Origin: Nitrospirota bacterium
GTDB taxonomy: Bacteria; Nitrospirota; UBA9217
Assembly: GCA_963790205.1 (NCBI GenBank)
Contig: CAWBNQ010000001.1
Coordinates: 800,001-864,000, forward strand
Length of the DNA stretch: 64,000 nt
Direction of reading: 5' to 3'
The notes beneath the pieces are model-generated. The model was not told where the DNA came from. It saw nothing but the letters and a program-made list of their open reading frames with translations, and did not search any database. The position numbers were made by a program, and so were the translations under genes. Each line of letters begins with the position of its first letter. The first letter of the stretch is position 1. This document shows positions 1,197 through 5,832 of this stretch, one piece after another.

Positions 1197-1225
1197 TTGA
1201 CAAAGAGAGTTAATTTTGATAAATC
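1197..1225 (+). promoter_or_regulatory. Candidate sigma70 promoter of speD operon
   Basis: TTGACA (1197-1202), 17 nt, then TGn-TAAATC (imperfect extended -10). Confidence 0.45.
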
Positions 1226-1244
1226 ACACTTAACTTTAATGAGT

Positions 1245-1370
1245 GACGCGCCGTCTGAAGTAAGAGACGGATTGGATTCGGACGCTAGCCCTTCCGTGGG
1301 AACGGAAGGCGGTGCTTGCGGAGATCCCGACCCTGTCGGGAAGCTTGTGAAGCAGGCGGAGAAGGAGGTA
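1245..1370 (+). promoter_or_regulatory. Structured 5' leader of speD (candidate cis-regulatory RNA)
   Basis: Three consecutive hairpins: CCGTCT/AGACGG (1251-1270); CCTTCCGT-GGGA-ACGGAAGG (1290-1309); TCCCGAC-CCT-GTCGGGA (1325-1341) extended by TGCTT/AAGCA (1313-1354); followed by AGGAGG RBS. Confidence 0.45.
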
Positions 1371-1376
1371 AACAGG

Positions 1377-1805
1377 TTGCACGCGTTAGGAACCCACCTG
1401 TTGCTAGAATTGCGGGATTGCAACCGCAAAACCCTCGGTAATCTGGAGTTTGTACAGGAAACACTAAAAAATGCCGCACTTGAGGCAAAGGCGACGATTG
1501 TAGAAGTCGCTTTCCACGAGTTCAGCCCCTTTGGCATCAGCGGGATGGTGGTCATCGCCGAATCCCATCTTGCCATCCATACGTGGCCGGAATACGGCTA
1601 CGCCGCAGTCGATGTCTTCACCTGCGGGGACCTGATCGATCCCAGGGTCGCCGCAAATTACCTCATTGAAAAGTTCAAGTCCAAAGACCCCTCGATCATC
1701 GAGATCAAGAGGGGGATCCTCGGCAATAAAAAGCTTCCCCATAAGGCCTTACCAGGAGAGACGCTTCAGCATGATAGAGCCCAAGAGCTACAAGTGGTTC
1801 ATTGA
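1377..1805 (+). CDS. speD: S-adenosylmethionine decarboxylase proenzyme
   Basis: GTHLLLEL, VIAESHLAIHTWPE (pyruvoyl cleavage site) and DVFTCG; TTG start after AGGAGG. Confidence 0.92.
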   Translation: MHALGTHLLLELRDCNRKTLGNLEFVQETLKNAALEAKATIVEVAFHEFSPFGISGMVVIAESHLAIHTWPEYGYAAVDVFTCGDLIDPRVAANYLIEKFKSKDPSIIEIKRGILGNKKLPHKALPGETLQHDRAQELQVVH

Positions 1806-2691
1806 GTATACGAGCCCCGAAGAGGGGCATTTGCACGGCATCCGCATGATCCACTATGCAAGCCAGACCAAGTACCAGCGGATGGAGATCATGGACAGTG
1901 GAAGCTATGGCCGGTGCCTCGTGTTGGACGGTAAGATGCAGTCCACCCTCACCGACGAATTCATCTACCATGAGGCGCTGGTGCATCCCGCGCTCCTCAC
2001 CCATCCGGACCCGAAACGGGTCTTTATCGTGGGCGGTGGCGAGGGGGCCACGCTCCGCGAGGTGCTCCGTCACAAGAGCGTGGAATACTGCATGATGGTG
2101 GACATCGACCAGGAAGTGGTCGAAAAGTCCAAGGAGTTCCTGCCTGAATGGCACCAGGGCGCTTTTGACGACCCGCGAACCGATCTGCGGTACATGGATG
2201 CGCGCAAGTATCTCGAAGAAACGACCGACACCTATGATGCCATAATCATTGATATTTCCGAGCCCGTTGAGGAAGGGCCTGCCTACCTCCTGTTCACGCG
2301 CGAGTTCTACGAGATCGTAAAAGAGCGTCTGAGCCCGGACGGGGTCATCTCCCTCCAGGCGGGGACCACGGCCCTGCATTCACTTTTGAACTTCACGGCC
2401 GTGGACAAGACCCTGAACGCCGTCTTCCCCGTGGTCGCCCCCTATGCCGTGTCCATTCCGTCCTTCGGCCTTCCCTGGGGCTTTACCCTGGCCTCGAAGA
2501 ACCTCGATCCACGGAAGTTCGCTCCCAAGGACCTGGACGCCATGATCAAGAAGAGGATCAAGGGCGAGAACCGGTACTACGACGGCATTACGAACCAGGG
2601 CATGTACATGCTGCCCAAGCATATTCGCAAGGCCTTAGCGGAAGAGACCAAGATCATAGAAGATAATGCGCCTCTCTTTACCTATCATTAA
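1771..2691 (+). CDS. speE: Polyamine aminopropyltransferase (spermidine synthase)
   Basis: LDGKMQ, DEFIYHEAL, GGGEG, VDID motifs; ATG 1771 with AGGAG; overlaps speD by 35 nt. Confidence 0.93.
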   Translation: MIEPKSYKWFIEYTSPEEGHLHGIRMIHYASQTKYQRMEIMDSGSYGRCLVLDGKMQSTLTDEFIYHEALVHPALLTHPDPKRVFIVGGGEGATLREVLRHKSVEYCMMVDIDQEVVEKSKEFLPEWHQGAFDDPRTDLRYMDARKYLEETTDTYDAIIIDISEPVEEGPAYLLFTREFYEIVKERLSPDGVISLQAGTTALHSLLNFTAVDKTLNAVFPVVAPYAVSIPSFGLPWGFTLASKNLDPRKFAPKDLDAMIKKRIKGENRYYDGITNQGMYMLPKHIRKALAEETKIIEDNAPLFTYH

Positions 2692-2757
2692 TGGCTGGGG
2701 GAAAAGTTCCCCGGAGGATTTTCCCGTCGCCGACGCTGATAGGATAATAAAAAAACG

Positions 2758-4242
2758 ATGAATCCTCCTCCCAACCGAATAGAGGACGAGCAGTTCCGCA
2801 CTCCCCTGTTCGACGCAATGGTCAACCTTGCCGAGAGTCGCAAGGTCTCCTTCCATACCCCCGGTCATAAGAGCGGCAAAGGCATTTCAACCCGGTTCCG
2901 AAAATTCGTGGGACCGCGCATTTTCTCCATCGACCTTACGACACTTGACGAGGTCGACTCGCTCCAGAACCCCACGGGAGTCATCAAGGAAGCGCAGGAG
3001 CTTGCCGCCAGGTCCGCAGGCGCGGACCGCTCGTACTTTTTAGTGAACGGCACCACCGTGGGAAACCACGCCATGGTGGCCTCCACGACCGGGCCCGGCG
3101 ATAAAGTGATCATCGCCCGTAACTGCCACCGCTCCGTGCTTACCGGTCTTATCATGAGCGGAGCCCAGCCGATCTTCTTTCAGCCGGCCTTTGACCGGGA
3201 CCTCAAGCTCACCCTGAACGTCACCTTCGCGGCCGCGAAACAGGCCATTGACGCCAACCCCGGGGCGCGGGCGCTGCTTATCACGAGCCCGAACTACTAT
3301 GGCCTCTGCGCCGATATCGAGAAGATCATTCCCTATGCCCACGAGAAAGGCCTTATCGTGTTCGTGGACGAGGCGCACGGCCCTCACCTCAAGTTCAACC
3401 CCAAGCTGCCCATCTGCGCGCTCGAGGCAGGGGCCGACCTCTGTGTCCAGTCCACGCACAAGATCGTGGGCGGCATGACCCAGGCCTCCATGCTCCATGC
3501 AAAAGCCGAGCGGATCAATATCGACGATGTGACAAACACGCTTAAACTCCTGCAGACCACGAGCCCGTCCTATATCCTGATGGCATCCCTCGACCTGGCG
3601 CGCATGCAGATGGCCACGGAAGGCAAGAAACTCCTGAACCGGACTATCAAGCTTGCCGAGGAAGCCCGCGCGGAGATCAACAAGATCCCCGGCATCACCT
3701 GTTTTGGCAGGGAGCAGGCCAGGGGAGCGGGCATGGCGGACATGGACGTGACCAAGCTCACCATCACGGTCTCGGATATGGGGCTTTCGGGTTACCATGT
3801 GTCCCATGTGCTGAACACCCGCTTCGGCATCCAGGTGGAGATGGCGGACCCTTTCCACGTGCTCGTGATCGTATCGATCGGAGACCGCCAGGACGACCTG
3901 AACCTGCTTGTGGAGTCTCTCCGCGTGATCGCCATGGAGACCGGGCTCCAGGGCGCGCTCCTGCCGCTCGATAAGGTCCATCCGCCGATGCTCCAGAACC
4001 GTTTTGCCATGACGCCCCGCAAGGCCTTCTATTCCGACAGCGAGCTTGTGAACGTGAACGACGCCGCGGGCAGGGTCTCGACGGAGATCGTGACCGTTTA
4101 TCCCCCCGGCATCCCGCTCCTTGTCCCCGGAGAAGAGATTTCCCGCGACGCCATCGACTACCTCCAGAACATGGCAGGTCTCGGCGCGATCATCGACGGC
4201 ATGAACGAGAACAACACCCTCGTGCGCGTGGCAAAGGCATAA
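2758..4242 (+). CDS. Fold-type I PLP-dependent Orn/Lys/Arg decarboxylase (probably arginine decarboxylase)
   Basis: FHTPGH, RNCHRS, DEAHG, QSTHK (PLP Lys), TTSPSY, YPPGIP; polyamine operon context. Confidence 0.88.
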   Translation: MNPPPNRIEDEQFRTPLFDAMVNLAESRKVSFHTPGHKSGKGISTRFRKFVGPRIFSIDLTTLDEVDSLQNPTGVIKEAQELAARSAGADRSYFLVNGTTVGNHAMVASTTGPGDKVIIARNCHRSVLTGLIMSGAQPIFFQPAFDRDLKLTLNVTFAAAKQAIDANPGARALLITSPNYYGLCADIEKIIPYAHEKGLIVFVDEAHGPHLKFNPKLPICALEAGADLCVQSTHKIVGGMTQASMLHAKAERINIDDVTNTLKLLQTTSPSYILMASLDLARMQMATEGKKLLNRTIKLAEEARAEINKIPGITCFGREQARGAGMADMDVTKLTITVSDMGLSGYHVSHVLNTRFGIQVEMADPFHVLVIVSIGDRQDDLNLLVESLRVIAMETGLQGALLPLDKVHPPMLQNRFAMTPRKAFYSDSELVNVNDAAGRVSTEIVTVYPPGIPLLVPGEEISRDAIDYLQNMAGLGAIIDGMNENNTLVRVAKA

Positions 4243-4390
4243 TCCTTAAATCCCTTGGACACGCACAAGACCGGATTTTCATCGATTATCTTAGGGCCTA
4301 AAGCCTTGTACGAGTCATCTCGATAAAAGTATCACTGTCGTTTTGTTGCCAAGCAAGTCTGCGTAATCTTCTATGTTAAAAAGCAAGTCT

Positions 4391-4638
4391 TTCTTTTGGC
4401 ATAAACGCATCTCTTTTATTAAGGAGCGATTTATAGCGAACGCAATCTTCAAACCCAATCTTCTATGAGCAGACAGTCTTCGTTGATGAAGAAAACGCTG
4501 CATTGCCTTGATTAATTATGAAGGCGTGGGTTCGTAGTCTGTGGAAGCACAGACGGCATCTTTCGATCCGCTGTAGATTACGCAAGACGATACCCACGGT
4601 GAAACACGGGTTTAAGATCGGCTATAAATATCGGTTTT
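4391..4638 (-). ncRNA. Putative bridge/seek RNA of the IS110 element (exact ends unknown)
   Basis: Stem-internal loop-stem at 4525-4598 whose two loop strands match the two insertion flanks; segment 4459-4467 matches the element end. Confidence 0.75.
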
Positions 4639-5709
4639 TTATTGAACAACCGCCGTAGTGTATTCTTGTTGGTTCTTTAAAACGTACCGGACGCGGTTTA
4701 ACAGCTTCCGGGCGATCCGAACGATAGCTTTGGTCTTTGTCATGTGTTTGCACAGCTCATTGAACGCCATCATTAGGGCAGGGTCTTTTCGCACCGCCGT
4801 CCAAGCGCTTTCGATCAAGACGAAGCGAAGCTGGGCGTTCCGCCTGCCGGTCATGCCGGTTTTAAGGTCCTTTTCCCCGCTGGAATCGGTATCGGGGATA
4901 AGGCCAACGTAGCTGCAGAGTTTGTCGAGCGTCTTGAAACGATTGATGTCATACAGCTCCGTCAAGAGCATCATCGCGGTCAAGGTACTGATTCCCGGCA
5001 CGGTCTTAAGTATCCGGACATTGTTCCGATAGTCGTCCGAATTGGCCAGGGCGCGGATCGCCCGGTTCATCTCGGCAATGATATGCCGAAGATGCTTAAG
5101 CTCGTCTAAGTGTATCTTGAGTGATAGGTTGCCGCTGGCCCGCTCCATTTGTACGGACTCGATCCAATTGATGAAGCGTTTGGACCAGTAACCGTTGATG
5201 AAATCGTCCGGTATGTCGATACCGTAAAAGCTCAGGATCGACTTGATCTGGTTCTTGCAGCGAGTTTGTTTCCTTACCATGCTATTTCGAGTACGAAGGA
5301 GGCTGCGGTCCTCGACTTTTGGTCGCGTAGGGACATAGATCCCTTCGATGTCGCCGTTTCTGAGGCTCCGGGCTAGCTTGCGGCAGTCCACCCGGTCGGT
5401 CTTGCCTGCGCGCTCTTTGTCTTTTGTGGGCACATCCGCCGGATTGACCACGAGACATTGTATGCCTCGCTCCTGAAGCCGGTCATGTATCCAGAAACCG
5501 GAGTAACCGGCCTCATAGACCGACTTATAGGCTGCACCCGGAAAATTGCGTTTGAGATAGTTTACCAGCACCCCGACCTCCGGAGGTTGTGAAAAGGTCT
5601 TATGCTCGAACTGATCGGTAAAAATACTGATGCTCCAACTTTTCTTATGAATGTCCATACCGACATAAATTTGTTGACCAGTGAAATCGAGTCTGCTAAC
5701 GTTATTCAT
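4639..5709 (-). CDS. IS110 family transposase/recombinase
   Basis: RuvC-like DEDD motifs VGMDIHK, YEAG and KTDRVD; C-terminal TVPGI...YVGL...SSG catalytic Ser domain. Confidence 0.96.
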   Translation of the reverse strand: MNNVSRLDFTGQQIYVGMDIHKKSWSISIFTDQFEHKTFSQPPEVGVLVNYLKRNFPGAAYKSVYEAGYSGFWIHDRLQERGIQCLVVNPADVPTKDKERAGKTDRVDCRKLARSLRNGDIEGIYVPTRPKVEDRSLLRTRNSMVRKQTRCKNQIKSILSFYGIDIPDDFINGYWSKRFINWIESVQMERASGNLSLKIHLDELKHLRHIIAEMNRAIRALANSDDYRNNVRILKTVPGISTLTAMMLLTELYDINRFKTLDKLCSYVGLIPDTDSSGEKDLKTGMTGRRNAQLRFVLIESAWTAVRKDPALMMAFNELCKHMTKTKAIVRIARKLLNRVRYVLKNQQEYTTAVVQ

Positions 5710-5832
5710 GGCAAGTCTCCTTTTGGTGTATTTTGGTCCGGGATAGACCTAATATACCTTAAGTCAGACTTGCCTTTTTAATCATAAGGTCTGTGTGCTC
5801 TGCGGATCAACTTATACCGTAAGGAGCTCTTC

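Follow-up and report, generated by a model that had tools for sequence, protein, structure and literature searches.

The window analyzed here, a 64,000-nt stretch of a Nitrospirota genome, contains an insertion sequence of the IS110 type. The question that this locus raises is whether the element selects its insertion site through an RNA of its own and, if so, which bases of this RNA read the target and which read the element ends. An earlier note, made from the window alone, had proposed an intact RNA-guided recombinase with the RNA encoded 3' of the gene. All sequences quoted in that note occur at the coordinates given. Seven insertion sites, covariation among relatives, empty alleles and the catalytic residues support this proposal. 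Judging from these sequence comparisons, we consider it very probable that this is an intact IS110-superfamily element with IS1111-type ends that transposes by bridge-RNA-guided recombination. The features on which this reading is based are listed in Table 1.

Table 1. Features of the element and its insertion site (positions within the window)
Feature	Positions	Strand	Evidence
Insertion sequence	4370..5790	-	1,421 bp, between two CT cores; same ends in all genome copies
DEDD recombinase gene, 356 aa	4639..5709	-	PF01548 and PF02371; NF033542, 210 bits (cut-off 140)
Core at element 3' end, CT	4368..4369	+	62 elements: CT 46, CC 15, TT 1
Core at element 5' end, CT	5791..5792	+	CT in 61/62 elements
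Target left part, host DNA	4360..4367	+	Equals RNA strand 4584-4577; found in empty allele
Target right part, host DNA	5793..5797	+	Guide match 3/5 here, 4-5/5 in the other six copies
Subterminal inverted repeat	4376..4390	+	6 nt inside 3' end; contains predicted -35 box (4386-4381, minus strand)
Subterminal inverted repeat	5766..5781	+	9 nt inside 5' end; 15/16 positions, one indel
Predicted -10 box	5781..5786	-	17 nt from -35 box in joined circle only
Predicted bridge/seek RNA, ~200 nt	4429..4629	-	Long-range closing stem; fold z = -3.97
Target-binding loop (outer stem, internal loop, inner stem)	4525..4598	-	Fold energies and pair counts
5' target guide, 8 nt + core	4575..4584	-	Own flank 6.35/7 non-core matches vs 3.42 for other flanks
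3' target guide, 5 nt + core	4539..4545	-	Own flank 4.26/5 matches vs 1.71 for others
Predicted handshake dinucleotide, target loop	4537..4538	-	Equals first two bases of element 5' end, 76/76
Donor-binding loop	4455..4515	-	RCAGC...GUCUGY scaffold as in target loop; inner helix 94% paired, outer 67%
3' donor guide, 6 nt + core	4460..4467	-	Follows element 3' end in 74/74 elements, three variants
Weak 5' donor guide candidate	4506..4509	-	4 nt equal to 5786-5789; without core match
Predicted handshake dinucleotide, donor loop	4458..4459	-	First base equals target base beside core, 25/44

Recombinase and element ends

The encoded protein contains the catalytic set D19, E66, D105, D108 and S277, with the serine located in a GL-P----SG motif. 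These residues align with D11, E60, D102, D105 and S241 of IS621, to which the similarity of the whole protein is weak (E 5e-6), and are conserved in the aligned relatives (D19 in 111/112, E66 in 107/107, D105 in 95/105, D108 in 104/105 and S277 in 93/99). The gene is followed by 269 nt of non-coding sequence downstream of the stop codon and preceded by 81 nt upstream of the start. Just upstream of the element, the gene run at 1197-4242 includes an Orn/Lys/Arg decarboxylase in a polyamine-type context; the open reading frames before the decarboxylase presumably encode S-adenosylmethionine decarboxylase and spermidine synthase.

The core had previously been read as TCT. A 3-nt core was rejected because the adjoining base differs from that of the window in 28 of 62 elements; the core is thus CT, the third T being coincidental in the window copy, and A4538 and A4459 are better interpreted as handshake bases than as part of the core. 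Both junctions are readable in 72 elements, of which 57 have identical cores and 15 have unlike ones; in each of the latter, it is the 3' junction that carries the odd core, which fits a cut 3' of CT followed by exchange of those strands, as described for the IS621 structures (PMC11208158). A stretch of the flank that resembles the subterminal repeat (4351-4361) was found to be host DNA, given that it occurs with one change in empty alleles.

When joined in silico through one core, the element ends yield TTGCTT and TATGAT separated by 17 nt, so that the junction is predicted to be promoter-like, of the sigma-70 type. The 17-nt spacing between the -10 box and a -35 hexamer starting with TTG recurs in 68 of 72 joined ends, a count in which the -10 box is partly fixed by the end-search pattern used. 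No circle junction turned up among contigs from 8 of the 23 listed runs, although such a search does not prove its absence. For the element in place, promoter-like sites are no more frequent than expected (2 versus 2.1), and a terminator search at the element returned none. Among the relatives, one locus (L016) has the same ~65-nt host stretch on both sides of the element, suggestive of a tandem target or a duplication, and five (L100, L106, L107, L109 and L110) have a longer 3' end, in which an additional segment common to them separates the RNA from the terminal repeat.

Genomic copies and empty sites

The 4.34-Mb assembly encompasses six whole copies of the element that are 99.9-100% identical and one copy split between the end of contig C3 and the start of C11. 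All seven have common ends and a single orientation within the target. The two target guides, 4584-4575 and 4545-4539, together spell a 15-nt target consisting of 8 nt, CT and 5 nt, and the copies match it at 15, 14, 14, 14, 14, 14 and 13 positions, where one of the 14/15 matches assumes that the two contig-end halves form one copy. None of the seven, therefore, lies at a site unrelated to the guides. The window copy is the worst match (13/15), which explains why the earlier note arrived at a shorter guide and a 13-nt target. The identity of 4584-4575 with 4360-4369 noted at that time is exact; on the 3' side, 4543-4538 is indeed the reverse complement of 5790-5795, but the guide itself is the 7-nt segment 4545-4539.

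Unfilled sites with a core are also present in the genome: 1 matches at 15 positions, 4 at 14, 11 at 13 and 47 at 12, that is, 16 sites at 13-15/15 in 4.34 Mb. Five of these (14-15/15) equal or surpass most of the filled sites, and hence base-pairing alone does not determine site use.

The empty allele, which the earlier note had suggested looking for as a check, was found in metagenome contigs. In a contig of run X3, position 4366 is joined to 5790, with exactly 1,423 bases skipped and three letters that fit either side; the skipped bases correspond to the element plus one core, without further target duplication. Contigs from X3, X4 and X5 join 4368 to 5795 via three other letters, with equal net length, and a third, more diverged empty allele is present in X4 and X6. 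The search covered contigs from 8 of the 23 listed runs, and the alleles belong to relatives that are ~90% identical, sampled by two studies. Two genomes of the same family lack the element, and there the decarboxylase gene directly neighbors the nucleoside-transporter gene. A palindrome upstream of another copy (C1:291851-291981) contains a 13-nt stub of the element 5' end in the exact insertion register, which forms a 24-nt direct repeat with the neighboring junction 109 bp away; this stub may have been left behind by a copy since lost, or it may reflect an assembly artefact.

Target guides covary with insertion sites

To compare guides and flanks across relatives, we compiled 63 loci found in species genomes plus the top 80 of 200 metagenomic ones. 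Of the 141 rows with a match, including the window, 118 were at least 54% identical (the other 23, mostly Bacteroidota, were left out), and 62 had both guides and both flanks, some part being missing in the remaining 56; the guide and end patterns were devised after sight of the sequences. The nearest hosts with a name among these loci are assemblies of Nitrospirota and Syntrophales.

When 5,000 non-coding ends were simulated, a match of at least 10 nt to the left 20-mer arose in 0.5% and a match of at least 6 nt to the right 20-mer in 70%. The 3' guide is thus not trustworthy from the window alone and is established by the other genome copies and the relatives. The 62 elements provide 46 distinct guide pairs, that of the window being represented by L068. 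The summed match of these pairs to their own flanks is 488, compared with 241.5 +/- 12 after permutation, and none of 10,000 permutations reached 488, a figure that overstates independence given the shared ancestry of the relatives. The own flank is the best or tied in 38 of the 46 pairs; the 5' guide was scored at the best of three registers, for own and other flanks alike. The loop strands thus covary with the flanks, in line with the expectation set out in the earlier note. In a tree of 47 proteins, sister tips differ in their guides and, in step with these, in their flanks; the window element and L066, which are 93% identical, are one such case.

Seven loci (L092, L094, L101, L106, L107, L109 and L110) use one and the same 5' guide in two registers that are offset by a single base, the core being CT or CC, and their palindrome family differs from that of the window element. 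A related element in a soil RNA library (run X20) has changes at 4578 and 4582, inside the 5' guide, which would retarget the element to the other palindrome unit type.

The predicted RNA and its target loop

The non-coding end folds better than all 200 of 200 shuffled sequences. A stem formed by 4620-4610 with 4454-4443 is paired in 81% of cases and shows two-sided changes in 7 of 11 pairs, which suggests an RNA of ~200 nt with both loops enclosed by a long-range stem. An Rfam search with the element RNA produced two weak matches far below threshold and no family. In one RNA run, contigs of a related element span its whole length at flat depth, with no discrete RNA visible.

The stem-loop previously drawn around the target guides appears to be real, with the inner stem paired at 90% over 45 aligned RNAs, but it is not the minimum-energy fold: the open-loop fold has an energy of -24.6 kcal/mol, 3.6 above the -28.2 kcal/mol of a four-way junction in which both guides are hidden, and RNAalifold likewise prefers a hairpin over the 3' guide. 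The pair closing the inner stem, 4574:4549, is A-U in 22 of the 45 RNAs, G-C in 21, G-U in 1 and unpaired in 1. In the competing fold, pairing reaches 48% for the 5'-guide hairpin, and of the pairs in the 3'-guide hairpin, the two unique ones are broken in 13 and 29 of the 45 RNAs. Five further pairs of the latter hairpin are well conserved (four of them in 43 or more of the 45 RNAs); the competing fold is thus disfavored and no more than that. The compensatory pair supports the open loop even though this is not the lowest-energy fold.

The putative donor loop and predicted handshake bases

The scaffold of the second loop is nearly invariant, and its inner hairpin shows compensatory changes. 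The segment 4467-4459 is the reverse complement of 4367-4375, as reported previously, and the role of donor guide proposed for it is supported by its tracking of the element end throughout the elements compared. A longer, 11-nt match of 4467-4457 to the junction was set aside as partly coincidental, since the RNA bases are largely fixed while the targets change.

For the second donor guide, of which the earlier note had found no convincing example, the best candidate is 4509-4506. It covaries loosely: all 7 elements whose end is changed have the variant base, as do 17 of 66 whose end is unchanged. This 4-nt, core-less 5' donor strand is the one real departure from IS621, in which, as described, all four guides include the core.

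Dinucleotides next to the 3' guides show the pattern known as handshake guides (PMC11208158). The complete agreement in the target loop consists of 69 elements of one kind and 7 of another, and these 7 may represent few events. For the donor loop, the observed agreement was reached by 66 of 10,000 permutations.

Target palindromes and the arrays around GxxExxY genes

Six of the seven copies are inserted in the outer unit of palindromes of ~75-95 bp, the arms of which consist of two or three ~9-nt units; the window copy lies in a lone arm, that is, a half-repeat. A pattern census of the genome, which overlooked two filled palindromes, recovered 18 distinct ones; by our own sorting, 4 of 9 palindromes with the unit type of the guide are filled compared with 0 of 9 with the other type. 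A palindromic partner is absent for most relatives outside the closest clade.

Repeats of similar construction are found around genes of the GxxExxY family (TIGR04256), which lie between inverted arrays of 8-10-nt units, with the unit sequence differing from gene to gene. Such arrays flank the five GxxExxY genes inspected in this genome (C1:1053999-1054349, C2:41956-42303, C3:657483-657830, C5:46043-46381 and C6:63136-63486) and most of the 28 parsed among 30 loci from the same family (L144-L173). A GxxExxY match above the cut-off was detected in 47 of the 61 genomes searched, and in one locus (L162), the unit type of the window element adjoins the GxxExxY gene. Of 47 reconstructed insertion sites, three agree with GxxExxY flanks at no fewer than 16 of 18 positions (L083, 18; L099, 18; L068, 17), compared with 0 of 47 controls, and all three belong to the 13-member clade of the window element.

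The six target palindromes contain no gene. An element beside a GxxExxY gene was seen in 0 of 143 loci, and 0 of the 7 genome copies adjoin one; the elements thus appear to use gene-less versions of the arrays. A combined test for a palindromic partner and 9-nt periodicity was noisy, with a clear score in only some of the 13 closest elements, so that the link to GxxExxY is carried by array inspection and by the site matches within the clade. Our guess is that the arrays are the ends of a mobile cassette. The element points to these repeats, of which we found no description in the GxxExxY/TIGR04256 literature, judged by title or abstract.

Proposed mechanism and alternative explanations

By analogy with IS621 and ISEc11, the element would form a circle, and the joined ends would create a sigma-70-type promoter with 17-nt spacing that transcribes the gene and the ~200-nt RNA. 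One recombinase dimer would hold the target loop, the two strands of which would pair with opposite strands of the 15-bp site, and another would act with the donor loop at the circle junction. Ser277 would cut the strands 3' of CT, the handshake bases would assist their exchange, and rejoining would insert the element together with one core, without duplicating anything more. The natural target would be the outer unit of a dispersed palindrome of ~9-nt units, and the window copy would represent a looser insertion into a lone half-repeat.

The most serious alternative concerns donor recognition only. The 74-nt target loop could be the entire working RNA, for the target and for target-flanked ends, with the protein recognizing the ends through the subterminal repeats and the second loop dispensable or vestigial. 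IS1111 seekRNAs of 70-100 nt suffice for movement, and excision requires target flanks, according to the account in PMC11187229; the weakness of the 5' donor strand and the 67% pairing of the outer helix of the donor loop are also compatible with this possibility. We regard it as unlikely, although not negligible, in view of the 3' donor strand that follows three end variants in 74 of 74 elements, and of the nearly invariant second-loop scaffold with compensatory changes in the inner hairpin.

It could also be argued that the protein, or a DNA hairpin, picks the palindromes and that the RNA segments are passive copies of flanking DNA, given that six of the seven copies reside in palindromes and some equally good sites are empty. 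This explanation is largely refuted and, in our estimate, very improbable: the window copy occupies a lone half-repeat, a palindromic partner is missing for most relatives beyond the closest clade, proteins with 85-93% identity use different targets in step with their guides, and the two strands match opposite DNA strands, overlapping at the core. That the guide matches are due to chance or to an assembly artefact is scarcely credible, even though the 6-nt match taken alone arises in most simulations, considering the seven independent sites, the covariation across relatives and the presence of near-identical elements at other matching sites in public runs.

Relationship to known RNA-guided elements

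The element is a clear member of the IS110 superfamily that is of the IS1111 type in layout. With the IS1111 seekRNA elements (ISEc11, ISKpn4 and ISPa11; PMC11187229), it shares the 3' non-coding end from which the RNAs of that group arise, subterminal inverted repeats (7-17 bp in IS1111), the GL-P----SG motif, a top-strand match located 5' of the bottom-strand match, and a junction promoter, in this case a predicted one. Natural retargeting (ISEc11/ISXne4) and insertion into repeats (REP, by ISPa11), described in the same source, are further points of similarity. The IS1111 proteins consist of 330-350 aa compared with 356 aa here. The terminal extensions of 9 and 6 nt differ from the IS1111 rule of 7 (or 6) and 3, so we do not claim IS1111 membership in the strict sense. 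A covarying, donor-matching second loop also sets the window element apart from those described in the consulted sections of PMC11187229. RNAs of the 3' non-coding end are predicted for 93% of IS1111 elements by a second study, which also mentions donor-binding bases located in multi-loops (PMC11208160).

The resemblance to IS621 (PMC11208160, PMC11208158) includes two pseudo-symmetric loops, the CT core, a 7-nt 3' guide that includes the core, handshake bases beside this guide, the DEDD residues plus serine, and repeat targets. Unlike IS621, in which the RNA is encoded 5' of the gene, the window element carries it on the 3' side and has long subterminal repeats. IS4321/IS5075 and other repeat-targeting elements likewise land within repeats of end-like sequence, with base and orientation fixed, whereas the repeat used by the window element resembles the arrays around GxxExxY genes.

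At the protein level, the identity to IS4321 is 21% over 296 aa. The best near-full-length matches among six references are ISHvo10 (28%), which PMC11187229 places among the more diverged elements beside the IS1111 cluster, and an IS110-family transposase from Leptospira (29%); the closest of the references are therefore still less than 30% identical. Assignment of the Leptospira protein to IS1533 was rejected because its N-terminus did not look like that of IS1533. By eye, the N-terminal motifs are shared with a Bacteroidetes cluster (row 148 of Supplementary Table 1 of PMC11208160), so that the lineage appears to be already included in the protein tree of that study; the supplement, as far as consulted, gives this cluster no ISfinder name and no description of an RNA or a target. 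A motif search of supplements of PMC11187229 detected no named ISfinder relative. In the text passages and supplements searched, we found no RNA model for this lineage, although a published one may exist.

Published work already covers the mechanism, the location of the RNA 3' of the gene, natural reprogramming and repeat targeting, so that the element would come as no surprise to a specialist, and its value is practical. What might be new, tentatively and as a combined proposal that we consider less probable than its negation, is a lineage of bridge recombinases from sediment bacteria in which the donor is read by approximately one guide strand together with long subterminal repeats, and the nearest clade of which has repeatedly rewritten its target guides, tracking the unit variants of GxxExxY arrays and their gene-less derivatives. 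If true, such a lineage would represent a natural half-donor system that preys on what is probably a mobile cassette. The combination of a two-loop RNA, a covarying donor guide and handshake bases with IS1111-type ends bears on the unity of seekRNAs and bridge RNAs. The 46 natural guide pairs on one scaffold make the tolerated positions visible, including CC cores and one-base register shifts, and a recombinase this distant from the named references compared, with a 15-bp target, is a candidate for editing screens.

Two other IS110-family elements, 24% and 27% identical to the window transposase, are present in the same genome in two copies each (C1:229726-230706 and C1:496675-497655; C2:81259-82131 and C5:25588-26460), apparently also with long 3' non-coding ends.
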